Source: Candidatus Omnitrophota bacterium
GTDB lineage: Bacteria > Omnitrophota > Gorgyraeia > Zapsychrales > Fredricksoniimonadaceae
Length of the DNA stretch: 64,000 nt
Reading direction: 5' to 3'
NCBI GenBank assembly: GCA_016201795.1
Contig: JACQCF010000004.1
Coordinates: 10,117 to 74,116, forward strand
Below the pieces are notes generated by a model. It saw only the letters and a program-made list of their open reading frames with translations. It ran no database searches and was not told where the DNA came from. Shown piece by piece: positions 8,686-25,650 of the stretch. How positions within the stretch are numbered: the first letter of the stretch is position 1; every line of letters begins with the position of its first letter. Made by a program: the position numbers and the translations under genes.

Positions 8686-8686
8686 T

Positions 8687-10530: not shown

Positions 10531-10573
10531 AGTGTTTGCATTCTACCTTAAGACAGAAGTCCTGTCAATGAAA

Positions 10574-10612
10574 TTATATCATTTTTTAAATTAGTTTGTA
10601 ACTTATGATATA
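10574..10612. promoter_or_regulatory. Putative operator copy 1: 9-bp inverted repeat TTATATCAT-N21-ATGATATAA
   Basis: Seen directly. Spacer shares CATTTTTTAA..TTTG motif with copy 2. Confidence 0.5.
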
Positions 10613-10671
10613 AAATTTTTATTTTTTCTACATAATAAGTCATAAATACTTACTTATGAATAACTTATAAA

Positions 10672-10710
10672 ATATATCATTTTTTAACATTAATTTGACA
10701 AATGATATAT
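10672..10710. promoter_or_regulatory. Putative operator copy 2: perfect 9-bp inverted repeat ATATATCAT-N21-ATGATATAT, overlapping a TTGACA -35-like hexamer
   Basis: Seen directly, about 100 bp from copy 1, between the divergent XRE/cupin regulator and the + strand small ORFs. Confidence 0.5.
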
Positions 10711-10749
10711 TATCATGTTACACTTGCATTAGATAGGAGGAAACAGGTT

Positions 10750-10917
10750 ATGTTCTTAGGAATGTTCCATAAAATGATAATAGCTAAAACCATCAGCCCG
10801 TGTTTTTTATTAACAACCCTTTTTAGCAAAGACCACAGGCAAGAAAAGGAACGTATGAATTACGATGAAGTGCCTGGGGATAATTTTCCTTATGTACTGA
10901 TGCTTCATTGTGAGTGA
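10750..10917 (+). CDS. Small hypothetical protein (55 aa from the RBS-supported ATG)
   Basis: AGGAGG at 10735-10740, 9 nt before the ATG. No homology recognised. Confidence 0.25.
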   Translation: MFLGMFHKMIIAKTISPCFLLTTLFSKDHRQEKERMNYDEVPGDNFPYVLMLHCE

Positions 10918-10926
10918 GAGAAATGT

Positions 10927-11022
10927 ATGGCTAAAGTTATCTGTGTAAAATGCAAAGATACTGGTGGTTATACAGCCTCCCCTGATTATACACGCTGCCG
11001 ATGTGGAGGAAGGCGGTCATAG
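10927..11022 (+). CDS. 31-aa putative zinc-ribbon peptide (MAKVICVKCKDTGGYTASPDYTRCRCGGRRS)
   Basis: CxxC ... CxC spacing typical of small zinc ribbons. Below the ORF-track length cutoff. Weak RBS. Confidence 0.3.
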   Translation: MAKVICVKCKDTGGYTASPDYTRCRCGGRRS

Positions 11023-11025
11023 AGG

Positions 11026-11295
11026 ATGATGATGGGGGTAACGCAACGAGAGGAGGCAGCGATCATGAGAGCGCTCTTAATACTCAAAGGCAGCAAAACT
11101 TCTGAGAAATTAAGGATCATCGTCAAGCTGAATCAGAAGGATTTAAAAGACAGGGTGATTACCTTATTGGAAGAAAACAAGGACCGTGAAGCTTTCGATA
11201 TCTTGTATAAAGAAGCCCAAGTAGAGACGTATCTTGCTCCCGGCGAAAGGATACCGATTAGACCCGTGGTCACCTTAAGCGAAGAACCGCTTTAA
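11026..11295 (+). CDS. Hypothetical protein (89 aa)
   Basis: ORF between the regulator and the fourth receiver gene. No motif recognised. Confidence 0.45.
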   Translation: MMMGVTQREEAAIMRALLILKGSKTSEKLRIIVKLNQKDLKDRVITLLEENKDREAFDILYKEAQVETYLAPGERIPIRPVVTLSEEPL

Positions 11296-11376
11296 TATAC
11301 CCAGAGGGTCTCTTACTTACAGGGTATAACAGAAAGTGTTATTACAAATTGAGGTATATGGTATACTTTCTCTACT

Positions 11377-12012
11377 ATGCGTATGCGAATAGAAAAGCCC
11401 AAATTGCTCATCGTTGACGATGAAATGGATATTTGCACCCATGCCCAGAATTATTTCGGCAGACGGGGCTTCATCGTCTCAACAACCGGAAGCGGTTTGG
11501 AGGCCCTTTCCATGATTAAAGCTTCCAGGCCGGATCTGGTACTTTTGGATCTCACTTTGGATGATTTAGACGGAAAAGAAGTCCTTGAACGGCTGCGTAA
11601 AGAAGATAAAGAGACAAAAATCATTGTGATTTCAGGCCAGGAGAACTTAACAGATATTGATAAACTCTATAGTCTGGGGATAAGCGGCTATTATGTCAAA
11701 CCTATAACCCTGGAGAACCAGGCAAAGCTGGTTTACGATGCGCTGGGCCTTCGGCAGCTTGAGAAAACTGTTCCCCAAGCGAATAAGGTTTCCAAATATA
11801 AAATTCCCAAAGCGGGTATTATCCATCAACTTTCCAATAAGTTAAGTATCATTCGAGGGAATTGCGAGGGTTTTGTTTTAGATTATCAAGACGGTTTATA
11901 TAAAGATAAAACCAGCGATGAATTGCTTAAGATGTCTATTGAAATCATGAAAAATGTGCAGCATGGCGTCGATGGTGCCATGGAAATGGTCGATAAAATC
12001 AAAAAAGAATAA
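11377..12012 (+). CDS. Response regulator receiver fused to a C-terminal H-box/DHp-like segment (no ATPase domain)
   Basis: Receiver LLIVDDEMD ... DLVLLDLTLDD ... IVISG. The C-terminal AGIIHQLSNKLSIIRGNCEGF resembles the kinase H-box GIAHQINNKF of the upstream HK. Confidence 0.75.
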   Translation: MRMRIEKPKLLIVDDEMDICTHAQNYFGRRGFIVSTTGSGLEALSMIKASRPDLVLLDLTLDDLDGKEVLERLRKEDKETKIIVISGQENLTDIDKLYSLGISGYYVKPITLENQAKLVYDALGLRQLEKTVPQANKVSKYKIPKAGIIHQLSNKLSIIRGNCEGFVLDYQDGLYKDKTSDELLKMSIEIMKNVQHGVDGAMEMVDKIKKE

Positions 12013-12015
12013 TGT

Positions 12016-12696
12016 ATGACGCGCTCTTGCCCAGAACCCCAGCTCATTGGCCAACTCCTACTTAGAGAAGGCCTCATTCGCCTTGAAGCCCTGGAGAAAG
12101 CCTTGCTGGAGCAGGAAAAATCCGGCCTGCCTTTGGGGGAGGTCCTCATCAAGTCAGGTGACATTACGCAAGAGGCCTTTTATGAAGTTTTATCCCGGCA
12201 GACGGGCCTTGCATACGTGCGATTAAAAGATTTGACTGTGACTCCTGCCATCCTCGCTGAAATTCCGGCCAAATTCGCCTGCCATTATGCTTTCATGCCT
12301 GTGGGCATGGAAGATTCTACCGTGACGGTTGCCGTGCCCCGTCTTTTGGACATACAAACACAGGATGATATCAGGCTTTTGTTAAAAAAGAACATCAAAA
12401 TGGTCCTGGCGTCGCCTAAGGAAATTGCCGAGGCCATAAAGACATATTATGGCGTGGGCGCACAAACCATGGAAAAGATATCACCGCAGCTTGCGCAGGA
12501 GAAATTCACTAGCGTCCAGTCCCAGGAAACCCAGGACCTTGTGGCCTCCAGTGAAGACGCCTCCATCATTCAATTTGTCAATCAAATTCTGCTGCAAGCC
12601 TACCACGACAGGGCCACCGACATCCATATTGAGCCTTATGAGAATGAGCTTGCCGTCAGGTACAGAATAGACCAAGGTCAAAATAGGCCAGGATGA
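12016..12696 (+). CDS. gspE: T2SS/T4P assembly ATPase GspE/PilB, N-terminal fragment (N1E domain up to the start of the N2 domain)
   Basis: GspII_E_N-like N-terminus. Ends ...DIHIEPYENELAVRYRIDQGQNRPG* where a canonical GspE continues. Confidence 0.75.
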   Translation: MTRSCPEPQLIGQLLLREGLIRLEALEKALLEQEKSGLPLGEVLIKSGDITQEAFYEVLSRQTGLAYVRLKDLTVTPAILAEIPAKFACHYAFMPVGMEDSTVTVAVPRLLDIQTQDDIRLLLKKNIKMVLASPKEIAEAIKTYYGVGAQTMEKISPQLAQEKFTSVQSQETQDLVASSEDASIIQFVNQILLQAYHDRATDIHIEPYENELAVRYRIDQGQNRPG

Positions 12697-12697
12697 G

Positions 12698-13609
12698 GTG
12701 GACTTGCGCGTCTCCATTTTACCGACTCCTTTTGGCGAAAGTGTTGTCATCAGGGTCCTTTCCAAGCATGTCTCTTTGAATCTTGAAAATTTAGGCCTGT
12801 TACCGAGGGATTTGGAGATTTTGGAAAGAATGATTAAAAAGCCGCATGGCATTATTTTTGTGACAGGCCCTACGGGAAGCGGGAAGACCACAACCCTTTA
12901 TGCCGTGTTAAGCCAGATTAAAGGAGCGGACAAGAAAATTATCACGATAGAGGACCCCATCGAATATCAAATCAAAGGGGTCACCCAGATTCAGGTGCAG
13001 CCCAAAATTGACCTGACTTTTGCCAGCGCCTTGCGCTCCATGCTGCGCCATGACCCGGATGTCATGATGGTGGGGGAAGTCAGGGACTATGAAACCGCCG
13101 AGATTACCATTCGGGTAGCACTGACCGGCCATCTGGTGTTCTCAACACTGCATACCAATAACGCGGCTGGCGGCGTCACGCGGCTCATTGATATGGGGGT
13201 AGAGCCGTTTCTGGTGTCATCGGCGGTGGAATGTTTTATTGCCCAGCGGCTGGTGAGGGTCTTGTGCGAGCGTTGCAAAAAAGAGACAAAACTTACCGAA
13301 GAGGTCTTGCGAGAGCTTGGGGTCACGAACTTGGATTTGTCCAAAGTCAGGATATACGAACCAGCGGGATGCGAGTCCTGCCGGCACACAGGGTACAAGG
13401 GCAGGACGGCTATTTACGAGATGTTGGTTGTGAATGAGGCCATCAAAGAGTTGATCTTAAAAAGAGCTTCCTCGGATCAGATTAAAACCAAAGCATTGGC
13501 CCTTGGCATGAGAACGCTGCGCCAGGACGGATGGCAGAAGATTGTCAAAGGCCTCACGACCGCCGCTGAGGTCATCAGGGTCACCCAGCAGGAAGATCTG
13601 GTGGAATAA
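12698..13609 (+). CDS. gspE: T2SS/T4P assembly ATPase GspE/PilB, C-terminal ATPase fragment (Walker A GPTGSGKTTT, Asp box, His box, tetracysteine motif)
   Basis: The +1 frame immediately upstream reads TKVKIGQDEVDLRVSILPTPFGE, matching the conserved region just before Walker A. About 33 codons are missing relative to canonical GspE. Confidence 0.8.
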   Translation: MDLRVSILPTPFGESVVIRVLSKHVSLNLENLGLLPRDLEILERMIKKPHGIIFVTGPTGSGKTTTLYAVLSQIKGADKKIITIEDPIEYQIKGVTQIQVQPKIDLTFASALRSMLRHDPDVMMVGEVRDYETAEITIRVALTGHLVFSTLHTNNAAGGVTRLIDMGVEPFLVSSAVECFIAQRLVRVLCERCKKETKLTEEVLRELGVTNLDLSKVRIYEPAGCESCRHTGYKGRTAIYEMLVVNEAIKELILKRASSDQIKTKALALGMRTLRQDGWQKIVKGLTTAAEVIRVTQQEDLVE

Positions 13610-13612
13610 TTT

Positions 13613-14830
13613 ATGCCCACATTTATCTACGAGGCCAGGAAAAATCCCAAAGAGCTCGTCAAAGACACCCTGGTTGCCGATAACAGGACTACCGCTATTC
13701 AAAAGATAGGCAAAATGGGTTATTATCCTCTTTCAATTTATGAAGAGCATAAGATTTCCCAAGACACGACGGATATTGGCGCTTATTTCTTAGGCAGGAT
13801 AAGCTTGAAAGAGGTCACGGATTTTACCAGGCAGCTTTCCGATCTGCTGGAATCCGGTCTTACCATTGCCAAGGCGTTGGATATCCTGCGTATCCAGACG
13901 GAAAACAGGAAATTAAAGAATATTATCTTGGACATTGAGGATTTTTGTGTTGCCGGAAATCCTCTTTCCAGCGCTTTAGGGCGGCATCCGCGCGTATTCT
14001 CTAAACTTTACGTCAGCATGGTGCGTTCCGGGGAAGCCGGCGGGGCCCTGGAGGGCGTCCTCAAAAGACTCTCGGATTTGAATGAAAAGCAGCTTGAGAT
14101 ACAAACCAAAGTTACAACCGCCTTGGCCTATCCCATTTTAATGTCTGTGGTGGGCTCTGCGACTATCGTGGTCTTGTTGACTTTTGTCATGCCCAAAATG
14201 ATGGTCATGTTCAATGATTTTGGCCAGGCGCTTCCTTTGCCTACGCAAATTTTATTAAGTTTAAGCCTCCTGATAGCCCATGACTGGTGGCTTCTTGTCG
14301 TGGGACTGCTTATTGTCATCATAAGCGTCATGAAAATATCCAGCACTCAGAAGGGAAGGCTGGCCGTGGATTATCTGATATTAAAATTTCCGGTTGCAGG
14401 AAGAGTCGTCAAGAAAATAGAGATAGCCAGGTTTACCAGAACACTGGGCATCCTTTTAAATAACGGCGTTCCCATGCTGGAGGCCCTGAAAGTTGTCTCG
14501 GCCACCATGAATAACGCCGTTATGCGCCAGGAGATTACAAAAGCTTCCGCGGCCGTCAAAGAAGGTACTAGCCTGGCCAGGGGATTTTCCAATAGCAAGG
14601 TCATTCCTCTGGCTACTGTCCATATGATCGCCATTGGTGAAGAAGGCGGACATCTGGAAACTTCCTTATTGAAAATCGCTGAAGCCGGGGAACGGGAATC
14701 CGATGAGGCCATCAAAATAGCGGTGTCGTTGCTTGAGCCTGTTTTAATTTTAAGTTTAGGTCTGGTCGTAGGGTTTATTGTGATAGCCATGCTGTTGCCG
14801 ATATTTGAAATCAATTTTCTCATACGATAA
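13613..14830 (+). CDS. gspF: Type II secretion system inner-membrane platform protein GspF/PilC
   Basis: 405 aa with two GspF repeats and 3 TM segments. Position directly after gspE. Confidence 0.9.
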   Translation: MPTFIYEARKNPKELVKDTLVADNRTTAIQKIGKMGYYPLSIYEEHKISQDTTDIGAYFLGRISLKEVTDFTRQLSDLLESGLTIAKALDILRIQTENRKLKNIILDIEDFCVAGNPLSSALGRHPRVFSKLYVSMVRSGEAGGALEGVLKRLSDLNEKQLEIQTKVTTALAYPILMSVVGSATIVVLLTFVMPKMMVMFNDFGQALPLPTQILLSLSLLIAHDWWLLVVGLLIVIISVMKISSTQKGRLAVDYLILKFPVAGRVVKKIEIARFTRTLGILLNNGVPMLEALKVVSATMNNAVMRQEITKASAAVKEGTSLARGFSNSKVIPLATVHMIAIGEEGGHLETSLLKIAEAGERESDEAIKIAVSLLEPVLILSLGLVVGFIVIAMLLPIFEINFLIR

Positions 14831-14856
14831 CCTCTTTTTTAAAGGAAAACTCGCTT

Positions 14857-15270
14857 ATGAAACGTTTTCAACACAAAGGCTTTACTTTAGTGGAGCTTAT
14901 GCTTGTTGTTGTCATCATCGGTATTTTGGTAGGGATGGTCGTTCCCCGTATTGCTGGCCGGGCGGAACAGGCCAGGCAGGCAGCCGCCAAAGCCGATATA
15001 GAGGTCAATATCGCCTCAGCCCTGGATTTGTATAACGTCGACAACGGCTTTTATCCTGAAACCCTGGACGAATTTCTCACCAACACCAAAAGTTTGCCCG
15101 CCTGGAAGGGGCCCTATTTGAAGAAAAAGCCCATCGACCCGTGGGGTACCCCCTATGACTATAAATATTTTCCCGAGGACAACAGCTACACTTTGCGTTC
15201 CTTTGGCAAGGACCGTCAGGAAGGCGCCAGCAATGTCATCAGCAGTGCTGACCAGCCCAAAGCGCCTTGA
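14857..15270 (+). CDS. gspG: Major pseudopilin GspG
   Basis: Prepilin leader + GFTLVELMLVVVIIGIL. Conserved GspG core (NGFYPETLDEF..W.GPY). Confidence 0.9.
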   Translation: MKRFQHKGFTLVELMLVVVIIGILVGMVVPRIAGRAEQARQAAAKADIEVNIASALDLYNVDNGFYPETLDEFLTNTKSLPAWKGPYLKKKPIDPWGTPYDYKYFPEDNSYTLRSFGKDRQEGASNVISSADQPKAP

Positions 15271-15730
15271 GGCTGGTTTTACCCTCATCGAACTGGTCCT
15301 TGTGGCAAGCATCCTGCTGGTTCTGGCAGGGCTTTCTGTTCCTCGATTTCAAAGGACTTTTTTGAGTTTATCCGTGAAAGATTCCGCTTTTAACCTGGCC
15401 AAGTTGATAACCCTCGCCCGTCAGGAAGCGGTGTGGGAAAGGAAAAATTTTAAAATCAGTTTTAATGTGGTAAAGGGCCAGTACCAGCTTTGGGAAATCG
15501 ATGAATCCAGCGTGCCTTTGAGTTACAAGAAGGTTGCAGGCAGGATGGGGAAATTATTCGCCCTGCCGCGGGGAGTGTTTCTTAAAAGTTCAAGAAACGA
15601 GACCGTTTTTTACCCCGATGGCCATTGCGATAGTGTTCGTGTGGATATGACCGACAAAGAGGGTTTGGGCCGCAGGCTGGACATCCAAAGCCCCAGCTGC
15701 CGCAGCAGCGTGAAAGACCTTGTCCCATGA
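15233..15730 (+). CDS. Minor pseudopilin GspH-like
   Basis: Leader MSSAVLTSPKRLEAG/FTLIELVLV. Start taken at the first ATG before the prepilin motif; overlaps the gspG 3' end. Confidence 0.6.
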   Translation: MSSAVLTSPKRLEAGFTLIELVLVASILLVLAGLSVPRFQRTFLSLSVKDSAFNLAKLITLARQEAVWERKNFKISFNVVKGQYQLWEIDESSVPLSYKKVAGRMGKLFALPRGVFLKSSRNETVFYPDGHCDSVRVDMTDKEGLGRRLDIQSPSCRSSVKDLVP

Positions 15731-16083
15731 CGCCCAAAAAAGGATTTTTATTACTGGAAGTTATCGTAAGCCTTGTGATTTTGACAGGCGGTTTGTTATT
15801 TGTAACGCAGGCGTATTTTGCCGCTTTAAAAACCGCCCAGCGAACGCGCGAGAATTTTCAACTTGGTCTTTGGCTGGAAGAAGGCATGTTTGGCTTTGAA
15901 GAAAAAGGGCAGGTCAAGGAAGGCCTCTGGCAGGGAGAGTTGGAAGGCCGCAAGGATGTGCTTTGGAAGATGAAGGCCGTGGCGACCCAAGCTTCGGATT
16001 TACACACGGTAAATTTAAGTGTTTTTGACCGCCATACACCACAACAAGAGCGCTCGTTATGGACTTTTTTAAACAAATCTTAA
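15727..16083 (+). CDS. Minor pseudopilin GspI-like
   Basis: MTPKKG/FLLLEVIVSLVIL prepilin-type N-terminus. 118 aa. Confidence 0.6.
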   Translation: MTPKKGFLLLEVIVSLVILTGGLLFVTQAYFAALKTAQRTRENFQLGLWLEEGMFGFEEKGQVKEGLWQGELEGRKDVLWKMKAVATQASDLHTVNLSVFDRHTPQQERSLWTFLNKS

Positions 16084-16724
16084 ATTACAAATTTAGAACA
16101 GACATTGCTAAGAACAAAAGCGGTAAGATATTTTCCGCGGGGTTTACCTTTATAGAACTGCTGGTGGCCTTGACCATATTTTCTATTATTGCGGTAAGCG
16201 TCTATGCTGTTTTTCACGCGGGAGTTAAAATGTGGTTTAAGACTAACATCCTTACCGACGATACCCAGACGAAGAGGGTTTTCTTTAATACCATTTCCCG
16301 GGACCTTAAAAACGCAATTTCTTACACTAAGGGTGGTGTAAATTTTCAAGGGGCACCCCAAAGGATCTCGTTTATGACGACAATGGAAGTCGCCGGTCAA
16401 GACGCGCCGCTTCACTGGGAACTGGCAAAAGTGGTTTATGTCTTTGACAAAGACTCTCAATCAGTCAAAAGGCTGGTGGCCACAAAACAGGAAGGTCTGG
16501 ATGAGGCAAAAGCCAGAAGCGAAGAATTTTTTCAAAACATCAAGGAGAAAGATTTTGGCTTCACCTATTGCTATAAAGACCCCTACAGCGTCGGGGAAGT
16601 GACGTATCAATGGCAAGACGCCTGGCATGAGCAAGCCAAAATCCCCCGCGGGGTCAGAGTAAATTTGGGGGAATTAAGGAAAGTCATTTTACTACCCACG
16701 GGGGAATTGGGGACTCAACAATGA
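16059..16724 (+). CDS. Minor pseudopilin GspJ-like
   Basis: AGFTFIELLVALTIF prepilin motif after a long leader. Exact start uncertain. Confidence 0.6.
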   Translation: MDFFKQILNYKFRTDIAKNKSGKIFSAGFTFIELLVALTIFSIIAVSVYAVFHAGVKMWFKTNILTDDTQTKRVFFNTISRDLKNAISYTKGGVNFQGAPQRISFMTTMEVAGQDAPLHWELAKVVYVFDKDSQSVKRLVATKQEGLDEAKARSEEFFQNIKEKDFGFTYCYKDPYSVGEVTYQWQDAWHEQAKIPRGVRVNLGELRKVILLPTGELGTQQ

Positions 16725-17770
16725 CCTATCCTAAACCCAAAACCGCCAGCATTCTCATTGCTTCTGTCTGGATTCTGGCCCTATTGTCCCTGCTGGCCTT
16801 CGGGATAGGTTTTCGTGTGGCCATTGAGGCGCGTTTGGATAAATACGAGGCGGATAGCCTCAAAGCCCTGTATTTGGCCAAGGCCGCGGTTGTCAAATCC
16901 CGGGAATTGTTATCCAATGACAGTAAAACCTATGATTCGCTCTATGAAAACGGAATCATGTTATCCAACCAGAATGACCTCAATGACCTTTTTATGAATA
17001 TCAAAATTCTTGGGAGTCAGGAAGTTTCCGCCAGGGTCAGCTACACCAACGGCGATCTAAAAAACTACCCCGGTATGATGGATGAAGAGCGTAAAATCAA
17101 CATCAACAAGGCTTCGCAAGAAGTTTTAAGGAATCTCATTGGGGTCTTAAGCGATAAACACAAGATGTCTTTGGGAACAACGACACCGCAGGAGCTGGCC
17201 TCATCAATCGTATTCTGGCGTTCCCAGGCGCCTGGGACGCAAGAGAACTACTATGAGTCCCTGGATAATCCCTATCCTTGCAAACACGGCGATTTCAGCG
17301 CCATTGAGGAACTTTTGCTGGTCCAGGGAATCACTTTGGATATGTTGAGCGTTCTTCAAGATTATATCACCGTCTTTGGCCCGGATGAGGCTAGTATCAA
17401 CATCAACACAGCCCCCAAAGAAGTGCTGATGGCCTATGGCATGCCTGAGGCGCTTGCCGATAAAATCCTCAAGTACCGCAATGGGCCCGGCGGCGAAGCG
17501 ACAGAGAAAGACGGCGGTGTATTTTTAGATATTAACGATATCGAAACCACGTTAAAGACGAACCTGCCGGAGGGCTTAAGCGAGGAGGAAGTCCTGATTT
17601 TGGGGGACCTTAAAAGCAGCCGGCGCTTTACAACCGCCTCAAACTATTTTACAATTGAGGCCACGGGCATTGTCCATGCCTCGAAGATGGAAAGAAAGAT
17701 AGTCTGCGTTGTGCAAAAAGACCCCGTCAAAAAAGGAGCCACGAAATTAATCGCCTATCGGGAATATTAA
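16721..17770 (+). CDS. gspK: Minor pseudopilin GspK-like
   Basis: N-terminal TM anchor (ILIASVWILALLSLLAFGIGF). ~350 aa. Position after I/J. Confidence 0.75.
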   Translation: MTYPKPKTASILIASVWILALLSLLAFGIGFRVAIEARLDKYEADSLKALYLAKAAVVKSRELLSNDSKTYDSLYENGIMLSNQNDLNDLFMNIKILGSQEVSARVSYTNGDLKNYPGMMDEERKININKASQEVLRNLIGVLSDKHKMSLGTTTPQELASSIVFWRSQAPGTQENYYESLDNPYPCKHGDFSAIEELLLVQGITLDMLSVLQDYITVFGPDEASININTAPKEVLMAYGMPEALADKILKYRNGPGGEATEKDGGVFLDINDIETTLKTNLPEGLSEEEVLILGDLKSSRRFTTASNYFTIEATGIVHASKMERKIVCVVQKDPVKKGATKLIAYREY

Positions 17771-17805
17771 AAAGTTTTTCCAATACACTTCTTTCCAGGG
17801 GCCAG

Positions 17806-19224
17806 ATTATCGCGCTGGAACTTGGGGAAGATTCACTGAAAGTTTGCCTTGCGCGGGTATCGGGGGACGGGCGAGAGGTCGTCTTTTTAAAGGAACATAA
17901 ATTTTCCACAACCGAAGATGAGGCGATTGTCCATGACATCAAAGACTTTCTGAAACCTTACAATGTTTCAGCGTGCAGGGTTTTCGTCAATATTCCCCGC
18001 CATCTTGCGATCACAAGATTCCTGAAACTCCCTTCTACCAATCCCCAGGAAATTGCCAGCATCGTCAGGATAGAAGCCCTCAAGTATATCCCTTACACCG
18101 AAGAAGAAGTGGTCTCTTCCTTTAGAATCATTGACACATTCGAAGACGGCTATGCCAATGTTTTATTGGCGACAGTACCGATTGCGAGCGTCCAGAGAAT
18201 TCTGGACATTTTTCAAACGGCGGGGCTGGTCCACATCGAAGGTGTTTGTCTGGGTTGCGAAACTTTACTGTTATGGCACACCTTGGCCGCAACAAGCGTG
18301 GCAAAAAGCAGCCTGCTTCTTGCCAACGTAGATACGCACCAGATGAATATCGATATCATCCATCAAGGCAAGCTTGCCTTCACAAGAGGAATTCCCTCTA
18401 ACACGGGACATCCGTTGACGAAGGAAAAGATCGTCGAAGAACTTAAAGTGTCTCTTGACGCCTATCAAAAAGAAACGCATAACACCGTAGAACGGATGGC
18501 GCTCACCGGTTGTGGTGATATCCTTAAAACATGCGAAGATGCCGTTAGTCATGCTTTTGCTTTCCCGGTTACGGTCACAGGCCAACTGGAGCATGTGGCG
18601 GTTAAAGAGAGCGCCTCGAAAGATTCTTTTGACACTTCCTTTGTGGAACTGCTGGGCCTTGCTTTGAATTTTCAGGATACGCAGATTAATCTTTTGCCGG
18701 GCGATATGTTTTTAAAAAACCGTCTCAAGCAGATTAAAAGCCATGTTTCGTTGACCCTGGCTCTTGTGGGTCTTATGACGCTTTTAGGCATTGGCCTTGC
18801 CTTTAAGAAACTCAACGACAAAACCGCCTATCTGGCTTATCTGAAGACCGAAATCGCCAGCATGGATTCCCAGGTCGCCCAGACAAAGAAAACGTTAAAA
18901 TACCTTACGGTCCTTAAAGAGCAAATGCTTGAGAAACCCCTGGCCATAGACTTTATTAGCGAAATTTATAAACTCTCGCCTAGCGGTATCACGCTTAACG
19001 GGATGGATTATGAGGACGGCAAGACCCTGACTTTGAAAGGAACCGCGTCTTCTTTGAGTGAAGCGCTCAAATACGTCGCTATTCTGGAAGGTTCGCAGTA
19101 TTTTCAAGATGTCAAAATCAAAAACGCCGTTCAGCAAAAGGGCGGGGGTAGCGAATACGCGGCTTTTGAGATTCTTTGCGCTTTGTCGAGGGAGGGGCAC
19201 GATGCCGTTAAAAAATCTGAATAA
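17806..19224 (+). CDS. GspL-like protein: PilM-like cytoplasmic actin-fold domain fused to a PilN-like TM/periplasmic domain; no canonical start codon
   Basis: Frame is open from 17659 and encodes PilM-like IIALELGEDSLKVCLARVSGDGREV ... IEALKYIPYTEEEVVSSFRII, but has no ATG/GTG/TTG before 18109. Start placed at ATT 17806 as a guess. The ORF track starts at ATG 18109. Confidence 0.6.
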   Translation: MIALELGEDSLKVCLARVSGDGREVVFLKEHKFSTTEDEAIVHDIKDFLKPYNVSACRVFVNIPRHLAITRFLKLPSTNPQEIASIVRIEALKYIPYTEEEVVSSFRIIDTFEDGYANVLLATVPIASVQRILDIFQTAGLVHIEGVCLGCETLLLWHTLAATSVAKSSLLLANVDTHQMNIDIIHQGKLAFTRGIPSNTGHPLTKEKIVEELKVSLDAYQKETHNTVERMALTGCGDILKTCEDAVSHAFAFPVTVTGQLEHVAVKESASKDSFDTSFVELLGLALNFQDTQINLLPGDMFLKNRLKQIKSHVSLTLALVGLMTLLGIGLAFKKLNDKTAYLAYLKTEIASMDSQVAQTKKTLKYLTVLKEQMLEKPLAIDFISEIYKLSPSGITLNGMDYEDGKTLTLKGTASSLSEALKYVAILEGSQYFQDVKIKNAVQQKGGGSEYAAFEILCALSREGHDAVKKSE

Positions 19225-19732
19225 AAGAGAGCGTCTAATGGCTTCCGTAACGTTTTGGCTGGCGCTTGTAGCGGTGGTGTATGGTTTTCTGATTGAGCCG
19301 CTGGTCGGCCGCTGGCAAAGCCTTGAGAGTGAGATTGTCTCCCAAAAGGATATCTTAAAAAAAGATTTGAGAATCCTCGAAAAACGAAAAATTATTGAGG
19401 CCGCTTACGTTGATATTGTCAAGGAGGCACAGTCCAGGGAACCGCAGGGTGCTGTAGATATCATGACGAGTGTGGAAACCCTTTCCAGGAACGATTCCTG
19501 CCTTCTTGTGAATATCAAGCCCTTAGGGATACAAAAAAGGGGATCCTGGCAGGAGGTCTCTATCGAAATCACCGCCGAGGCCAACGCGCAGCAATTTTCT
19601 AAATTTTTGTACGACCTGGAAAGTTCTAAAACAGGGATGTTAAGAATCAAACATTTCAGCCTAAATCCTGAATCCGCCAAGCCCGGTATTTTAAAGGGTG
19701 TTTTTATCCTGAATCGAATCCTGTTGGATTAA
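19202..19732 (+). CDS. GspM/PilO-like bitopic assembly protein
   Basis: Single TM (VTFWLALVAVVYGFLI) and a periplasmic domain. Start at the ATG overlapping the upstream stop; alternative ATG at 19238. Confidence 0.55.
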   Translation: MPLKNLNKRERLMASVTFWLALVAVVYGFLIEPLVGRWQSLESEIVSQKDILKKDLRILEKRKIIEAAYVDIVKEAQSREPQGAVDIMTSVETLSRNDSCLLVNIKPLGIQKRGSWQEVSIEITAEANAQQFSKFLYDLESSKTGMLRIKHFSLNPESAKPGILKGVFILNRILLD

Positions 19733-19900
19733 CAAGCTATTTGAGATTTCTATTATCTTATAAGTTATTTATTTACAATATGTTATATTCGATTATATCT
19801 TTAATTGGCATTTTAGGTGATTACATGTTATATTTTATCATAACATCACCCATGAGTTGAATATTCCTCAATTTCAACACATTATAAAGCAAGGTAAACT

Positions 19901-20395
19901 ATGGAAAGCGGCCATCATTTAGCCAAATTTCAGCTATGGCAGCTTACTAATAAATTCTTGGCAGTATCTTTGGTTCTTTTATCTTTGTATTTTGTGTATG
20001 GAATTTTTTTCCTCAAGCCTTCTTACACACTCCAAGGGTCTGTCAAAAGCGAAGTGGATCCGCTGAAGGATACTAACATGAATAATCAGCCTTTTGCGCT
20101 ACAGAGAAAAGACTACTCTTATTATTTTGACAAAATCTCCGGCAGGGAATTGTTTGGCCAAACCCAGCAGACACTTTCCGTTGACACAGCCACAGTAGAT
20201 GAAGCGACGGATAACTTAAAGCTTGTGGGAATCATCGCGGGGAAGAGTCCGCAGGCTGTTGTGGAAGACAAGAAAAATGAAAAGACGTATTATCTCAATA
20301 AAGGGGACTCTTTTGAGGGTTTGAACGTGCAGGAGATTCTAGATAACAAAGTGATTCTTGACCATGAAGGAAAGAAAATGGCGCTTTCTTTGTAA
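19901..20395 (+). CDS. GspC/PilP-like secretin-interacting protein
   Basis: N-terminal TM. C-terminal LVGIIAG..PQAVVEDKKNEKTYYLNKGDSFEGLNVQEILDNKVIL, HR-domain-like. Immediately upstream of the secretin. Confidence 0.55.
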   Translation: MESGHHLAKFQLWQLTNKFLAVSLVLLSLYFVYGIFFLKPSYTLQGSVKSEVDPLKDTNMNNQPFALQRKDYSYYFDKISGRELFGQTQQTLSVDTATVDEATDNLKLVGIIAGKSPQAVVEDKKNEKTYYLNKGDSFEGLNVQEILDNKVILDHEGKKMALSL

Positions 20396-20412
20396 AAGGA
20401 ACAATTGACCTT

Positions 20413-22362
20413 ATGAAAACAAAACTCATAAGTATTTTGACGGCGGGGACGTTGTTTGTTGTGTCTATGTTGGGGCCTCTTCGGGTCTCGGGCCAGGAAG
20501 AGCCTCATCCCGCTTCCAATCTCAAGCAAGCGCCTGCGCAAATCCAGTCCGATAGAATCTCGCTGGATTTAAAAGGCATGGATGTGGTGGAAGTCATCAA
20601 GACCCTGGCTTCCCAGGGTAACTTGAATGTCGTCATAGGCGATGATGTCAAAGGCCGCGTGACGATTTTTTTAAAAAGCGTTAAGCTTATGGATGCCTTT
20701 GAGATTATCCTTGTGGCCAGCGACTTGGCCTATGACAGGCGGGGGGACATTATCTATGTCATGTCCCAGAGGGAATACGAGGACACCTATGGAGAGCGCT
20801 TTGCCGACAAAACAACGGCCAAAATCATTCAACTGAAATTTGCCAAAGCCGCTGAAGTGGCCAAGGCGTTGAACCAGATGAAAAGCAAGATCGGCAAAAT
20901 CATCGTGGATGAAGGTTCCAATACCATTGTCATGATGGACAGTCCTGTTTTAGTGACCCGCATGCAGGAGACGGCCGGCAAACTGGATTCACCCACCATA
21001 ACGAAAGTCTTCAGTCTCACCTACGCGAAAGCGGAAGATTTAAAGACCAAAATTTCCGAGAGCCTCACCCCCGGCATTGGCAGTATGCAGATTGATGAAA
21101 GGACCAATCAGGTTGTGGTCACCGATCTGGAGGGAAAGATGGCCAAAATCCAGCAGATGATAACAGCTTTTGATGAAAAATTGCAGCAAGTTTTTATCGA
21201 AGCCAAGATTGTGCAGATTACCCTCAATGACCAGTACAAAATGGGTGTGGACTGGAACAGTTTCCTTAATAAATTGCATAAAAACAGCATCAACAGTGCC
21301 TTTGGGCTGGCAGCCAGGGATACTCTTAATCCCGGCGCACAACTGGCCATCGGTTCCGGGGACCCCAACTCTGATTACAACATTGTTGTGCAGGCGTTAA
21401 AATCCATTGGCGATGCCAATCTGCTTTCCAGTCCCAGAATCACCGTCCTGAATAACCAGGAGGCAAAAATCTTGGTGGGTAAAACCCAGCCCTACGCGAT
21501 TAATACCGTGACCCAGGGAACAGCCACGACCACGACGGCCACGAACTTGCAGTTTATCGATATCGGGGTCAAACTCTATGTCACACCCGTGGTCAATCGG
21601 GATGGTTTTATTACCATGAAAATCAAGCCCGAGGTCAGCTCGGCCACCGACTTTTACACGTATGGCTCGCCTCCAACCACAGTTCCCATCGTGGAAACCA
21701 CCCAGGCGGAAACCAGTGTGACGGTCAAAGACGGCACCACTCTGATTATCGCGGGTCTTATCAAGGACGACAGAAACAGCCAGGTGGACAAGGTCCCGTT
21801 TTTGGGTGACCTTCCCTTGATTGGAAACGCCTTTCGAAAGACCGGTAAATCCATCAACAAGCAGGAACTGGTGGTTTTTTTGACTCCTCATATCGTGACC
21901 GGAGACAATGATTATGTGGTCGCGCCACCTAGTCCGCCCACTGGCGAAAAGAAATTCACCATGCCAGAGGATTTTGTTTTTGAACGCAGGGACAGGGTGA
22001 AAATGGACCCGGGCGTATTTAAAGAGAACCCTGTTCCTCAAGCTAGGGGAAAAGCAACGTCTTTTATAACGGTGTTGCCCGCAAGCGATCAGGAGTATTA
22101 TTACGTGGTTAAAGAAAAAATAGCCCAACAGATCATAGCACCCAAAGACAAAACGCATATCCCTTTGAAAGGGAAGGTGAAGGTGCAATTTTTTCTTTCT
22201 TCCAAAGGGGAACTCTTATACGCGCCCGAGATTGCGCAGTCAAGTAATTCTTCTTTGGATGAGGCGGTCATCGCCGCGGTAGTTAAAGCTGCGCCGTATC
22301 CAGCGTCTCCCCAAAAGGGGGTAAAACAGAAACGTTTTGTGGTGGATTTTTCCTTTGAGTAA
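20413..22362 (+). CDS. gspD: Secretin GspD/PilQ with a C-terminal TonB-C-like extension
   Basis: Signal peptide and N0/N1-type domains. Secretin core (LLSSPRITVLNNQEAKILVG ... VPFLGDLPLIGNAFRK ... VVFLTPHIV). A ~150-aa tail ending KGKVKVQFFLSSKGELLYAPEIAQSSNSSLDEAVIAAVVKAAPYPASPQKGVKQKRFVVDFSF. Confidence 0.9.
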   Translation: MKTKLISILTAGTLFVVSMLGPLRVSGQEEPHPASNLKQAPAQIQSDRISLDLKGMDVVEVIKTLASQGNLNVVIGDDVKGRVTIFLKSVKLMDAFEIILVASDLAYDRRGDIIYVMSQREYEDTYGERFADKTTAKIIQLKFAKAAEVAKALNQMKSKIGKIIVDEGSNTIVMMDSPVLVTRMQETAGKLDSPTITKVFSLTYAKAEDLKTKISESLTPGIGSMQIDERTNQVVVTDLEGKMAKIQQMITAFDEKLQQVFIEAKIVQITLNDQYKMGVDWNSFLNKLHKNSINSAFGLAARDTLNPGAQLAIGSGDPNSDYNIVVQALKSIGDANLLSSPRITVLNNQEAKILVGKTQPYAINTVTQGTATTTTATNLQFIDIGVKLYVTPVVNRDGFITMKIKPEVSSATDFYTYGSPPTTVPIVETTQAETSVTVKDGTTLIIAGLIKDDRNSQVDKVPFLGDLPLIGNAFRKTGKSINKQELVVFLTPHIVTGDNDYVVAPPSPPTGEKKFTMPEDFVFERRDRVKMDPGVFKENPVPQARGKATSFITVLPASDQEYYYVVKEKIAQQIIAPKDKTHIPLKGKVKVQFFLSSKGELLYAPEIAQSSNSSLDEAVIAAVVKAAPYPASPQKGVKQKRFVVDFSFE

Positions 22363-22376
22363 GCAAAGAAAATTTT

Positions 22377-22907
22377 ATGAACGTTAAAATCATTTCAAAA
22401 ATTTCGTTAATCGCAAGCGTTATCTTACTGGCCGCGGCTATCAGTTTGTATTTGCAGAAACAACAAGCAAAGAACCAGAACGTCTCTTTACAAAACAGGC
22501 TGGATGAGGCAACGGTTTTCAAACAGGCCATTGAAAAGAAACTCCAGGATGCCACAAATGCCAATGCCAGCCTGGACCTTAAGACAAAAGCCCTGCAGAC
22601 AAAAATTGATACCCTCTCACAGGAATTGGAAGAAAGCAAGGCCGTAAATATGAAGCTGAGCCATAGTCTTGAGGCAAAAGAAGGCAATGTCAAGGAACTC
22701 GCCTTAAAGCTAAAGGATGTCGGGGCAAAAGAAGATGACCTCACCGCGCGCCTGGCAAAGGCTAACGAAGATTGTTTGAAGGTAAAATCGCAGGCAGAGA
22801 ATTTTTTAAAAACCAAACAGGCGCTGGAGAGGAAAATTGAAGATCTGACTCAACAAAACGACCCGGTCCCTTTGGGCACCATTGTCGTCAAACAGTCTTC
22901 AGAGTAG
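22377..22907 (+). CDS. Membrane-anchored coiled-coil protein, function unknown
   Basis: N-terminal TM, then a heptad-rich Q/K/E/L sequence. Confidence 0.5.
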   Translation: MNVKIISKISLIASVILLAAAISLYLQKQQAKNQNVSLQNRLDEATVFKQAIEKKLQDATNANASLDLKTKALQTKIDTLSQELEESKAVNMKLSHSLEAKEGNVKELALKLKDVGAKEDDLTARLAKANEDCLKVKSQAENFLKTKQALERKIEDLTQQNDPVPLGTIVVKQSSE

Positions 22908-22948
22908 GGGGTAATAATATTGATTTTACATCAAGTAAAAATTACTAT

Positions 22949-22977
22949 TTGACAAAATATCTTTTTGTCTGTAGTAT
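22949..22977 (+). promoter_or_regulatory. Sigma70-like promoter TTGACA-N17-TAGTAT
   Basis: Seen directly. Preceded by TTTACATCAAG, a motif also present at 38600. Confidence 0.5.
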
Positions 22978-23014
22978 ATAGCCTGTTACTTAAGTTCAGT
23001 AGTTTGTGTGACAT

Positions 23015-23653
23015 TTGTGCTTAAAGAAAAGAAAGTCCCCCATGTTCAAAGCCCGGCACAACCGCATAAGAAATTTCCCGCAGCCTTCAAGAACCCTTGA
23101 AGGTTTTTTATTTGTTCTTGCCTTTGCTGTTGGTATCGCCTACGCAGATCAATTGCCCCCTGGCATTAAAATAGTGGCTTATCACATCCAGCCTCTTGCT
23201 TTCAAGGCTTATGAAGACGTCTCGGATATCACTAAAATCCCAATTGTCTTCTCTAAATATGGGCAGGAAGCAAAGCTGGTATATCCGGCTCCAAAAGAAA
23301 ACACCATCCGCGAGACGTCCGTTATCATGAAAAAATGCAGAGAGGCCCTCTCGCGGAATGTCGAGAGGATCGTTAAGACTCAAAAAGAAAACAAAGCTGT
23401 GCATGATTATTTGACTTTGAAGGACAAGGTGCCCGCACTCAATAAAGAGGATTTTCTCAGGATTGTTGACGATCCCAGGGAAGCGACGTTCCAAAGGGAT
23501 CCCGCCACCAACAAGGCCGTGGCGGAGTTTCGGTCGAAGGAATTTCCCATCAATAAAAATATGGCCTTTTGTATCTATATAACCTTTATCTGCTCTTACG
23601 AACAGTCAACTGTTGAGAAAATCATTCTATCGGCGGTGAAACTTGAAAGCTAA
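23015..23653 (+). CDS. Hypothetical protein with N-terminal hydrophobic segment
   Basis: ORF downstream of the strong promoter. No motif recognised. Confidence 0.5.
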   Translation: MCLKKRKSPMFKARHNRIRNFPQPSRTLEGFLFVLAFAVGIAYADQLPPGIKIVAYHIQPLAFKAYEDVSDITKIPIVFSKYGQEAKLVYPAPKENTIRETSVIMKKCREALSRNVERIVKTQKENKAVHDYLTLKDKVPALNKEDFLRIVDDPREATFQRDPATNKAVAEFRSKEFPINKNMAFCIYITFICSYEQSTVEKIILSAVKLES

Positions 23654-24191
23654 AAATTTTTTATTCAGGGCAGTATCGTTAAGCGTTTTCTTCCTGTTAA
23701 ATTTAACTTATAGCAAAGCTGACGATAACACACAATCTAATCAAAATTATATTGCCAGTGGCAGTTCCATAAAAGTAACACAGGGAGGAGCTCTCTTTAA
23801 TACACAGATAGAATATTTTAAAATCACTGGCAACACTATTAATATCGATAGGAAGAATGATAATAAAGGTCTTGAGTCCAAATCAGCAAACTCTACTTCT
23901 GGGATATCTGTGGTTCATACCTCTGCAGGAACTAATCAATCTTTTGATTTAATAAATAAGACAAATACTGCCCGTTGGCAAAAGAAGACTTTTTCCACCG
24001 CACAGGCATCGAAGCCGATAGTTAAGATTACTCAATCAAAAGAATTACAGAATTTAGAACAGCATCGCAAAGCCAGAAAAGAAGCCTTAAAGAAAATGCT
24101 GGAATTGCGCCCGTCCCGTCGGGAAAATACTCTTATCAATAACCTAAACACCAACACCAACCAGGACGATCAAGACAATGCGCAGCCATAG
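23643..24191 (+). CDS. Hypothetical secreted Asn/Thr/Ser-rich protein
   Basis: Signal peptide MKAKNFLFRAVSLSVFFLLNLTYSKA. AT-rich. Confidence 0.5.
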   Translation: MKAKNFLFRAVSLSVFFLLNLTYSKADDNTQSNQNYIASGSSIKVTQGGALFNTQIEYFKITGNTINIDRKNDNKGLESKSANSTSGISVVHTSAGTNQSFDLINKTNTARWQKKTFSTAQASKPIVKITQSKELQNLEQHRKARKEALKKMLELRPSRRENTLINNLNTNTNQDDQDNAQP

Positions 24192-25650
24192 AACAGGTTC
24201 CGCGTTTTTTGTTTTTTTGTTTTTCCTTGCAAGCGCTGTCCATGCCCAGACTGCTACCTCGCGCATTGTGGTTTCTCCTCAATATCTGGTGCTTTACGCT
24301 GTGCAGGGGGCTACCACCAGCCAGTCCCAGACTTTTACTATTTCCAATGGCGGCACGGGAACACTGCATTTCAATTTGTCCAATGCCACATCTTGGTTAA
24401 GTATCAACACCTCCTCCGGTTCTGTCACAAATAACAAAGCCACCATCACCGCAACAGTCAATCCTTCGGGATTAACTTCCTCTTCAAGTCCTTATATCGT
24501 GGACATCACGATCTCAAATACCGATATTCCCCAGGACACTAAAAAAGTCAGGATCCGGTTATCTATTCTGGCCTCTGACGCTTATGTGCATAGCTACCAG
24601 TATGATTCTAAAGGAAATGTTGTAAGAAGAATCACCCCCAACGGCGATATTATTGAATATGCTTACGATGCTTTGGGCCATATGCTTCATATCTATTATC
24701 CCAATAGCCAAGAGGTCGACTATATCTATGGTGCAGTTGGAAACCGTATCTCGATGACGGATTGGCATGGAATCACCACATATGGCTATGACCAGCTCAA
24801 CCGTCTGCGTGGTGTTATTTACCCTAATATAAATCCCATCCTTTATGATTATGACAAATCAGGGAAATTGACGGCCATAACCTATCCGGACCAGTCAAAG
24901 GTCACCTACACCTATGATACAGATGGGAGACTAACGAATGTTGGTTATACCGCAGGGACAGTTACTTATACCTACAGTAACACTTCGAATAATCTTACAC
25001 AGAAAACTTTACCTAACGGGGCTTACACCACCTATAGCTACGATCTAGCCAAGAGGATTACAGATACAATAAATAAGCAATCCAATGGTTCACTGATTTC
25101 CAGTTATCATTATGCCTATGATGCCAACAGCAATATCACTCAGGAAATAGAAACCACCCCTACTGCAACAACGATCAAAAATTATATCTACGATAAACTC
25201 AATCGTTTAACAAACGTCAATTATTCTGATGGGACCTACGAAACCTATACGTATGACTCGATGGGAAATCGCCTGACAATGACAACCCAAACAGGCACAA
25301 CCACCTATGAATACGACTCCGACAACAGGCTCATCAGGGCCGGCAGCACGTATTATTTCTACGATAAAAACGGTAATACCATCAAAAAAGTCTCGCCCTT
25401 AAAAACAGAGACCTACCAGTATGACTACAATAACATGCTCACCCAGTATTCCGATGGTACCAATACCGTTACTTACCAGTATGACGGCGACCGTAACCGC
25501 ATAGCCAAGGTTGTCAATGGCACAATTACAAACTATATCAATGATATCAACAGACCCGTTGTCCAGGTCCTTATGGAAACCAACGCCAATTTAGTCATGA
25601 CTAAACGCTATGTCTACGGCAATGAACTCATCAGCCAGGAGGCCTTCTAA
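24178..25650 (+). CDS. RHS/YD-repeat protein, N-terminal part (signal peptide, Ig/BACON-like domain, YD repeats), ending inside a YD repeat
   Basis: Signal peptide. Ig-like segment TFTISNGGTGTLHFNLSNATSWLSINTSSGSV. Multiple YxYDxxG(R/N)L repeats. Ends RYVYGNELISQEAF*. Confidence 0.8.
   Translation: MRSHRTGSAFFVFLFFLASAVHAQTATSRIVVSPQYLVLYAVQGATTSQSQTFTISNGGTGTLHFNLSNATSWLSINTSSGSVTNNKATITATVNPSGLTSSSSPYIVDITISNTDIPQDTKKVRIRLSILASDAYVHSYQYDSKGNVVRRITPNGDIIEYAYDALGHMLHIYYPNSQEVDYIYGAVGNRISMTDWHGITTYGYDQLNRLRGVIYPNINPILYDYDKSGKLTAITYPDQSKVTYTYDTDGRLTNVGYTAGTVTYTYSNTSNNLTQKTLPNGAYTTYSYDLAKRITDTINKQSNGSLISSYHYAYDANSNITQEIETTPTATTIKNYIYDKLNRLTNVNYSDGTYETYTYDSMGNRLTMTTQTGTTTYEYDSDNRLIRAGSTYYFYDKNGNTIKKVSPLKTETYQYDYNNMLTQYSDGTNTVTYQYDGDRNRIAKVVNGTITNYINDINRPVVQVLMETNANLVMTKRYVYGNELISQEAF

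Follow-up and report, generated by a model that had tools for sequence, protein, structure and literature searches.

What does a TonB-like domain do at the end of an outer-membrane secretin? The question is raised by a 64,000-nucleotide stretch of DNA from a Candidatus Omnitrophota bacterium (assembly GCA_016201795.1, contig JACQCF010000004.1, positions 10,117 to 74,116 of the forward strand; hereafter the window), in which the last core gene of a type II secretion system (T2SS)-type operon encodes a secretin of 649 amino acids (aa) that continues for about 150 aa past its barrel. An initial annotation, made from the letters of the sequence, had placed this extension at 21900-22362 and compared its end with the C-terminal domain of TonB. 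The open reading frame (ORF) and its C-terminal end (...KGKVKVQFFLSSKGELLYAPEIAQSSNSSLDEAVIAAVVKAAPYPASPQKGVKQKRFVVDFSFE) were found exactly as described there. The current work places the identity of the tail almost beyond doubt, follows it through the phylum, and points more tentatively to a peptide that it may capture.

Identity and fold of the secretin tail

The secretin is 100% identical to P0001, annotated as 'MAG: type II secretion system protein GspD [Candidatus Omnitrophica bacterium]', where MAG stands for metagenome-assembled genome. Its predicted signal peptide has no lipobox cysteine. In Pfam, the region behind it gave two Secretin_N matches (89.5 bits) together with STN and GspD_N0 matches below cut-off, and AlphaFold2 (AF2) modelled this region as three beta-alpha-beta-beta-alpha units with a pLDDT (predicted local distance difference test score) of about 90. 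Solved secretins in the PDB matched the protein with E-values of 1e-40 to 1e-37, and the alignment to every one of them ends at query aa 495-504. Because the protein scores under both NCBIfam equivalog cut-offs (GspD TIGR02517, 252.3 versus 351.35; PilQ TIGR02515, 272.9 versus 284.35), it is filed as a member of the secretin superfamily that is T2SS-type by the context of its complete operon and not as a strict GspD.

The post-barrel extension (21900..22362, aa 497-649) consists of a linker of about 60 aa and a module of 90 aa. In Pfam, the whole protein matched TonB_2 (PF13103) over almost the entire profile at aa 560-646, with 34.0 bits (cut-off 22), and TonB_C (PF03544) with 29.0 bits (cut-off 24.6); both scores were higher on the isolated tail, for which the E-values were 3.2e-9 and 1.7e-7, respectively. 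The NCBIfam model tonB_Cterm reached 29.2 bits on the tail alone (cut-off 27.1), and the NCBIfam TolA model matched the tail with its C-terminal end, below cut-off. The module is at least as near to the TolA-like TonB_2 family as to TonB_C. A profile made from 48 tails and searched against solved structures retrieved TonB C-terminal domains, namely Helicobacter pylori TonB 6sly (E 7.6e-6), 5lw8, and HasB 2m2k.

The AF2 model built from the full-length family alignment shows the module as an alpha-beta-beta-alpha-beta fold (helix 559-573, strands 587-596 and 606-610, helix 614-626, strand 639-648) with a pLDDT of about 90; the tail modelled alone reached a pLDDT of 89 and a predicted TM-score (pTM) of 0.79. 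When compared with the PDB by Foldseek, the best 24 matches were all C-terminal domains of TonB, TolA (domain III), HasB, or FusB. They are headed by 6sly (E 2.5e-5, TM 0.76) and include the peptide-bound complexes 6s3w (TolAIII with a TolB peptide) and 2gsk (BtuB:TonB). The TonB pattern read by the initial annotation is borne out by Pfam scores above cut-off, predicted fold, Foldseek, and profile matches alike, and it is virtually certain that the tail is a genuine TonB/TolA-type C-terminal domain.

A pilotin-binding S-domain in this position, which would have refuted the reading of the initial annotation, was also looked for and did not turn up. No S-domain or pilotin-binding family matched the tail in the Pfam scan, no S-domain-like helices lie between barrel and module in the AF2 model, and the linker (aa 497-558) is modelled there without helices and at low pLDDT (42-62). 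In the window, the ORFs neighbouring the secretin contain no lipobox and no pilotin-like TPR domain. An energy-transducing TonB was likewise rejected. The tail has no transmembrane (TM) anchor of its own and sits after an outer-membrane barrel, the only N-terminal hydrophobic segment of the protein is the secretin signal peptide, so that a motor-docking TM helix is absent, and a Pfam scan of the operon and its flanking ORFs (8308..25650) found neither ExbB nor ExbD; the tail therefore cannot transduce energy. Databases recognise both domains but frequently enter the entire protein as a 'TonB family protein', and for the same reasons this name is misleading for these secretins.

Conservation was measured on 86 full-length homologues (47-67% identity by BLASTP; 45-65% in the alignment), and all 86 carry the tail. 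In the module (aa 559-649), Y562, F593, and G599 are invariant, and P605, P628, F629, F632, P633, and F642 are conserved in more than 90% of the sequences. The first part of the linker (aa ~497-537) contains the linear motif GE.DY..P..PP.GE..FT.PE.P.FERR, with an invariant R526 and almost invariant F515, T516, E519, and F523; the following stretch (aa ~538-558) is charged, variable, and poorly conserved. The linker motif is confined to a close clade comprising the window and loci L001-L019 of the genome scan described below. A more distant tailed clade (L020-L070) has another, charged linker and has kept the module.

In general layout, the window secretin resembles T2SS GspD and type IV pilus (T4P) PilQ, such as P. 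aeruginosa XcpQ (5wln) and Neisseria PilQ (4av2/9sh1), in its signal peptide, N0/N1/N2 rings, and beta-barrel, and it stands last in a gspE-F-G-(pseudopilins)-L-M-C-D type operon as in T2SS GspD systems. It has no helical S-domain and carries instead the 150-aa extension, which is absent from all solved secretins. Its module shares fold and sequence family with the TonB and TolA C-terminal domains (6sly, TolAIII 6s3w/1lr0, HasB 2m2k), and beta-strand addition is presumed for it as well. In contrast to TonB and TolA, it is not carried on an inner-membrane TM helix or coupled to an ExbBD/TolQR motor, but is placed on an outer-membrane pore without obvious energy input, in one copy per secretin subunit and with reversed polarity.

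Distribution of the tail among Omnitrophota secretins

The initial annotation had called such a domain unusual on a secretin. This holds for the studied secretins, none of which aligns in its solved structure past about aa 504, but not within Omnitrophota, where the fusion is widespread; it is rare in studied bacteria and common in this phylum. The tail alignment (A2) held no stretch conserved enough to seed a genome scan, and the full-length alignment was taken instead to scan GTDB with one genome per species, from which the 80 most similar secretin loci were collected. Most of these loci are titled Omnitrophota MAGs, 17 are titled 'uncultured Planctomycetia/Planctomycetales', and a few 'bacterium'. 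Two Omnitrophota-type secretins (L060 and L061) lie on contigs binned as 'Methanosarcinales archaeon' and 'Cyanobacteriota bacterium'. These odd titles, including the 17, are probably due to mis-binning or placeholder taxonomy; the Methanosarcinales case could alternatively reflect physical association with a host.

The module was found in 45 of the 80 secretin ORFs, which extend 111-177 aa beyond the barrel, and one further ORF is cut by a contig end. The remaining secretins end 5-40 aa past the barrel or have a differing tail of about 74-86 aa that ends in 'LKGLKKY'. A GspC-like gene lies upstream of 39 of the 45 tailed and 33 of the 35 tail-less Omnitrophota secretins. Tailed and tail-less secretins as members of separate systems were considered and rejected: with a GspC-like gene ahead of both, the two forms take equivalent places in one type of operon. 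When the barrel cores were placed in a neighbour-joining tree, the tailed secretins formed a large, mostly coherent group in which a few tail-less lineages are nested, and the basal groups are tail-less. This tree, crude as it is, suggests a single old gain of the tail followed by losses.

Other arrangements were seen among the secretins without the module. A sister group (L059, L064, L065, L067, L069; also L068, L075, L077) has the tail of about 74-86 aa ending in 'LKGLKKY' or similar, and in L059, L064, L065, L067, L069, and L077 the next gene encodes a protein with a signal or TM segment, a coiled coil, and TPRs. By analogy with RcpA-TadD, this tail and its neighbour may form a conventional pairing in which a peptide is inserted into a TPR pilotin. 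In five loci (L051, L052, L053, L055, L062), the ORF after a tail-less secretin encodes a lipoprotein of some 350 aa. In L051 this lipoprotein contains Amidase_3 (N-acetylmuramoyl-L-alanine amidase) and Cu_amine_oxidN1 domains, and the copies of L053, L055, and L062 have the same catalytic motifs; a possible link to the cell wall, lacking in tailed lineages, is offered by this lipoprotein. An identical spurious peptide (...RLDAPGEPRCVFIWESS...) is read just 3' of the tail-less secretin in L031, L033, and L043, and its recurrence suggests a conserved non-coding element or RNA gene.

The module is not limited to T2SS-type secretins. At E <= 1e-3, an exhaustive search with the tail profile gave 10,773 cluster representatives, of which 407 also passed E <= 1e-10, and 33 of the best 150 matches contain a secretin core. 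About ten of these 33 combine the PF13629 N-domain and Secretin, as Tad-pilus secretins do, with a tandem pair of TonB_C domains. One of the Tad secretins, P0160, used as a query, retrieved 651 homologues; all 120 of those listed combine PF13629, Secretin, and TonB_C, 102 with one module (about 548 aa) and 18 with two (about 738 aa), and the modules are almost always at the extreme C-terminus. P0160 itself is labelled 'bacterium', and 13 of the 14 listed homologues with a taxon in their source name are Omnitrophota or Omnitrophica. The tailed Tad secretins are encoded in genuine Tad loci, together with RcpC, Flp-type pilins, DUF192, and a TadZ/TadA fusion. In Omnitrophota, the same kind of tail is carried by T2SS-type and Tad secretins, which belong to unrelated families.

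The Tad secretins (CpaC/RcpA type; P0160, P0295, and others) resemble the window secretin in that the secretin is followed by one or two TonB_C modules at its very end. They differ in their PF13629 N-domain family, in their Tad locus with RcpC and the TadZ/TadA fusion, and in having no visible neighbour with the box-like motif described below. Their modules score far higher with TonB_C than with TonB_2, the reverse of the window tail, and in the profile search they are no nearer to it than are TonB-like proteins that are not secretins. For these reasons, independent capture of the module by the two secretin families seems likelier than transfer between them.

Further uses of the module were met in the same searches. 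P0121 (851 aa, on a 3.3-kb contig) is a T2SS-type secretin with three tandem TonB-like modules past its barrel. Many other proteins (P0122, P0123, P0125, P0126, P0128, P0133, and others) consist of a signal peptide and 2-5 tandem TonB_2/TonB_C-like modules without a TM anchor, and P0122 is named as Omnitrophica. These proteins suggest that the module serves more generally as a binding unit in the periplasm. Ordinary TonB systems exist in Omnitrophota too, as seen at two loci: in L014, the gspE of a tailed-secretin operon is immediately preceded by genes for ExbD and for a TonB of 200 aa with a TonB_C score of 52.9 bits (both within 318..1302), an arrangement not seen in the window, and in L041 a TonB gene adjoins a TonB-dependent receptor.

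A candidate partner and the possible role of the tail

The gene directly downstream of the window secretin encodes a 'hypothetical protein' with a hydrophobic N-terminal TM helix (aa ~8-26), about 130 aa of coiled-coil-like sequence, and a conserved C-terminal strand. In Pfam it gave weak Tropomyosin and Crescentin-rod matches and nothing else. Its C-terminus reads ...DPVPLGTIVVKQSSE, with the last residues ...QQNDPVPLGTIVVKQSSE as the candidate partner segment and EKEGVSLGTIVVKQS as the candidate ligand peptide. Orthologues behind close-clade secretins are only about 30% identical overall, but SLG[TA][IV]V[IV] occurs in the last ~12 residues of 16 of 16 aligned, and L166, G167, and V170 are invariant. 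We take this strand to resemble TonB boxes such as DTIVVTA or ETVIVTA, and it is the best candidate for a ligand of the tail. Of the two kinds of contact that the initial annotation had suggested for the tail, with peptidoglycan or with a partner, the second now has a concrete candidate.

The pairing of this motif with tailed secretins is strict. A strict box pattern, LG[TAS][IVL][IVLE][IVL] within the last 16 residues, was searched in all ORFs of at least 60 aa in the window and 81 loci. It was present in 18 of 6,167 ORFs, all 18 of them immediately 3' of a close-clade tailed secretin; none was found in 28 distant-tail loci, in 34 tail-less loci, or elsewhere in this set. A relaxed motif and a hidden Markov model of the coiled-coil protein also gave no partner in the distant-tail or tail-less loci, and a box-like C-terminus was also sought, without any specific result, on the genes of two Tad loci and on those proteins of the distant tailed clade that resemble GspC, GspM, GspL, and GspK. 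The coiled-coil gene as an obligate companion of every tailed secretin is rejected, since it is restricted to the close clade. The coiled-coil protein retrieved no homologue other than itself, and a metagenome scan seeded with its alignment was used instead. Among the 25 loci obtained, the box is kept in 24 and cut by a contig end in one. In all 21 loci with at least about 150 bp of upstream sequence, the adjoining upstream ORF (gap 11-107 bp) ends in a TonB-like module; in the remaining four, the upstream sequence is shorter than 75 bp.

These observations can be accommodated by the following mechanism. The module would be a passive peptide-capture domain, attached by a flexible tether to the secretin, at the periplasmic rim of every one of its roughly 12-15 subunits. 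It would add a short extended peptide of a partner as an extra beta-strand, as its relatives do with the TonB box or the N-terminus of TolB; addition of a short peptide in this way is the established binding mode of the domain family (PMC12204202). In the close clade, the ligand would be the C-terminal SLGT[IV]V[IV] strand of the downstream protein, presumably an inner-membrane-anchored coiled coil facing the periplasm and long enough to cross it, as about 130 residues of continuous helix would span about 20 nm. A set of such struts would tie the outer-membrane pore to the inner membrane, as a TonB/TonB-box pairing with reversed polarity, and might do the anchoring and assembly work that is done elsewhere by pilotins, GspB/OutB, or GspAB. 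Capture of this strand by the tail is the reading that we propose, as a plausible but tentative one that falls a little short of an even chance.

Comparison with known accessory proteins shows what would be new in this arrangement. In S-domain/pilotin pairs (PulD-PulS, GspD-AspS, RcpA-TadD), a C-terminal appendage of the secretin is likewise placed to contact an accessory envelope protein, and the contact serves targeting or assembly of the secretin (PMC10499894). In those pairs, however, a folded groove of the pilotin receives a peptide or helix of the secretin, whereas the window secretin itself has the folded receptor domain and would receive the peptide of its candidate partner; pilotins are lipoproteins, and the candidate partner is predicted to be anchored in the inner membrane. 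GspB/OutB and GspA-GspB (ExeA-ExeB) are periplasmic proteins with an anchor in the inner membrane, and they link the secretin to this membrane and to the cell wall (PMC9239104, PMC4098917). The downstream coiled-coil protein may be likened to them in role, without any sequence relationship. GspB/OutB and GspAB contact the N-terminal domains of the secretin, while the contact proposed here is with the C-terminal tail.

Several points weigh against the strut proposal. The 28 distant tailed loci have the module and show no box gene in the fetched DNA (up to 10 kb per side), so that a strut cannot explain the tail in general, except if its gene lies at another place or has diverged in sequence. 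The 18 and 21 co-occurrences all fall within one clade, and the box gene, the FT.PE.P.FERR linker motif, and the close clade coincide exactly, which may represent a single evolutionary event and not 18. The coincidence fits equally well with a box that binds the linker motif, and the linker could be the real contact. TonB boxes normally belong to the N-terminal part of outer-membrane proteins, and a box at the C-terminal end of a protein in the inner membrane would depart from this; the inner-membrane topology of the coiled-coil protein is itself a prediction from its sequence. The gspE gene looks disrupted in this MAG, and this copy of the system may be inactive or misassembled. Finally, since the module also occurs in the distant clade and on Tad secretins, where no box gene is seen next to it, it could have a general ligand shared by all of these systems, such as peptidoglycan or another envelope protein. 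The broader proposition, that T2SS-type and Tad secretins of Omnitrophota use TonB-like domains in reverse to capture box peptides of inner-membrane struts or other envelope proteins, as a previously unrecognised, pilotin-independent means of anchoring and assembly, is possible but rather doubtful.

If the ligand is peptidoglycan or an abundant component of the envelope, the module would act as a general envelope anchor and fix the secretin in the cell wall, in analogy to AMIN domains, TsaP/LysM, and GspA/ExeA elsewhere, and the downstream coiled-coil protein would be unrelated to it. The presence of the module on two unrelated secretin families argues for a ligand that is not specific to one system. 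The 28 tailed loci without a nearby box gene, the amidase lipoprotein that follows the five tail-less secretins named above and suggests a secretin-cell wall link in the phylum, and the signal-peptide proteins with 2-5 tandem modules, which fit a generic periplasmic binding module, point the same way. However, peptidoglycan binding by TonB C-terminal domains is, to our knowledge, not firmly established. No peptidoglycan-binding family of Pfam or NCBIfam matched the tail, the conserved box gene is left unexplained, and strand addition of a peptide is the established mode for TonB/TolA C-terminal domains (PMC12204202). We consider such an anchor unlikely, although it deserves to be kept in mind.

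Somewhat less probable still is capture of a box-like strand on a different protein, an outer-membrane protein or lipoprotein, for targeting or assembly of the secretin. This would be a pilotin-like or Tol-Pal-like arrangement, in effect an S-domain/pilotin pairing with swapped roles. The module occupies the exact position of S-domains, secretin-pilotin pairings are bespoke and non-conserved (PMC10499894), and the sister clades have what appears to be a conventional pairing, with a tail of about 74 aa ending in LKGLKKY followed by the coiled-coil-TPR protein; Omnitrophota also possess TonB, ExbD, and TonB-dependent receptors. Yet the window and the tailed loci yielded no candidate lipoprotein or outer-membrane partner, and the idea is otherwise unconstrained.

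The strong conservation of the linker motif (R526 invariant; F515 and F523 nearly so) raises the question of whether the partner is the secretin itself, with each tail binding the FT.PE.P.FERR linker or the module of the neighbouring subunit and stabilising the multimer as S-domains do. The low confidence of the linker in the monomer model is expected of a segment that packs in trans, and TonB C-terminal domains form strand-swapped dimers in some of their crystals. But the distant tailed clade has kept the module and lacks the motif, and the tandem (x2, x3) modules of other secretins would be unnecessary for a one-to-one clamp, which makes a clamp of this kind improbable.

Recruitment of secreted proteins, for example the neighbouring RHS/YD giants, through a box-like peptide is the least credible of these readings and very improbable: T2SS-type loci do flank Omnitrophota giant proteins (preprint 10.64898/2026.06.07.730766) and RHS-repeat proteins lie just downstream at 24178..25650 and 26863..35700, but the geometry of solved secretins would put the tail outside the barrel while substrates enter via the periplasmic vestibule, the neighbouring large ORFs lack the box motif in the strict pattern scan, and the module is also found on Tad secretins, which export pilus fibres.

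Operon surroundings and meaning for the phylum

The features of the operon, the secretin, and its downstream neighbour are collected in Table 1.

Table 1. Positions of the operon genes, secretin domains, and candidate partner within the window
Feature	Position	Strand	Basis or remark
Response regulator, 211 aa	11377	+	Pfam
T2SS-type operon upstream of the GspC-like gene	12016..19732	+	Pfam
gspE, split	12016..13609	+	Pfam T2SSE, MshEN
gspF	13613	+	Pfam T2SSF
gspG	14857	+	Pfam T2SSG
Minor pseudopilins, including J-like and K-like	15155..17770	+	Pfam N_methyl, T2SSJ, T2SSK
PilM/PilN-like (GspL-like)	18109	+	Pfam PilN
GspM-like	~19202..19732	+	Weak Pfam T2SSM match
GspC-like, directly upstream of secretin	19901..20395	+	Pfam T2SSC, 39.5 bits
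Secretin gene, last core gene of T2SS-type operon	20413..22362	+	ORF, 649 aa plus stop; Pfam Secretin 174 bits, Secretin_N x2
Predicted signal peptide, aa 1-27 (...RVSG|QEE)	20413..20493	+	Read from sequence; helix 2-19 in model; putative cleavage site
Periplasmic N0/N1/N2-type ring domains, aa 48-254	20554..21174	+	Secretin_N x2; weak STN, GspD_N0
Secretin beta-barrel core, aa 255-496	21175..21900	+	PF00263 aa 328-495, 174 bits; beta-rich in AF2 model
Linker, aa 497-558	21901..22086	+	Conserved linear motif (aa ~497-537), then variable charged stretch
TonB/TolA-type C-terminal domain, aa 559-649	22087..22359	+	Pfam TonB_2 and TonB_C, AF2, Foldseek, PDB profile match
Downstream gene, 176 aa, 'hypothetical protein'	22377..22907	+	ORF 14 nt after secretin; candidate tail ligand
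TonB-box-like motif PLGTIVV, aa 165-171	22869..22889	+	Family consensus SLG[TA][IV]V[IV]

The gspE gene is split into two ORFs. The first (12016..12696) covers MshEN and the first ~44 positions of the T2SSE profile and is terminated by TGA; the second (12698..13609) picks up at profile position 92, with ~47 positions missing between 'RYRID' and 'VDLRVS'. Either a pseudogene or an error in the assembly of the MAG may be the cause.

Just downstream of the operon, a 490-aa RHS/YD-repeat protein with a BACON-like domain (24178..25650) and a 2,945-aa RHS-repeat giant protein with Ig-like domains (26863..35700) are encoded. T2SS/T4P genes have been reported to flank Omnitrophota giant proteins (preprint 10.64898/2026.06.07.730766), and it is possible that these neighbours are substrates of the T2SS-type machine. 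At the start of the window lies a 1,751-aa polyketide-synthase-like ORF (30..5285) with AT, ACP, KR, DH, and thioesterase domains; its start is less than 30 bases from the edge and its acyltransferase match begins in mid-profile, and it probably begins upstream of the window. It is followed by a 989-aa 7TM-receptor histidine kinase (5295..8264) and single-domain response regulators at 8308 and 9202.

A literature search on secretins with a TonB C-terminal domain and on Omnitrophota secretins found no description of the fusion, and neither secretins nor Omnitrophota appear in a 2025 study on how TolA and TonB evolved. A 2026 preprint (10.64898/2026.06.07.730766) lists 'TonB C-terminal domain' genes beside giant proteins without recognising them as secretins. 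The secretin, TonB/TolA domain III, and possibly the TonB-box-like peptide are each known; their combination is not described in the literature searched. Beyond the initial annotation, for which a survey of secretins with this tail was now made (86 of 86 aligned homologues and 45 of the 80 most similar species-representative loci), the current work adds that the fusion is phylum-wide on two secretin families and that one clade has a specific candidate ligand.

The targeting, assembly, and anchoring of secretins vary by system and have been studied almost entirely in Proteobacteria, where a C-terminal peptide binds a lipoprotein pilotin. In an ultra-small and probably host-dependent phylum, this arrangement has been replaced by a folded TonB/TolA-type domain, and in two secretin families. 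If the proposed pairing is true, energy transduction would not be the sole task of TonB-type domains, a trans-envelope tether of a new kind would be recognised, and hundreds of Omnitrophota 'TonB family protein' entries that are actually secretins would need re-annotation; at least one genome survey has already included such entries in its TonB content. The machines concerned flank the giant proteins that are thought to underlie the lifestyle of Omnitrophota.

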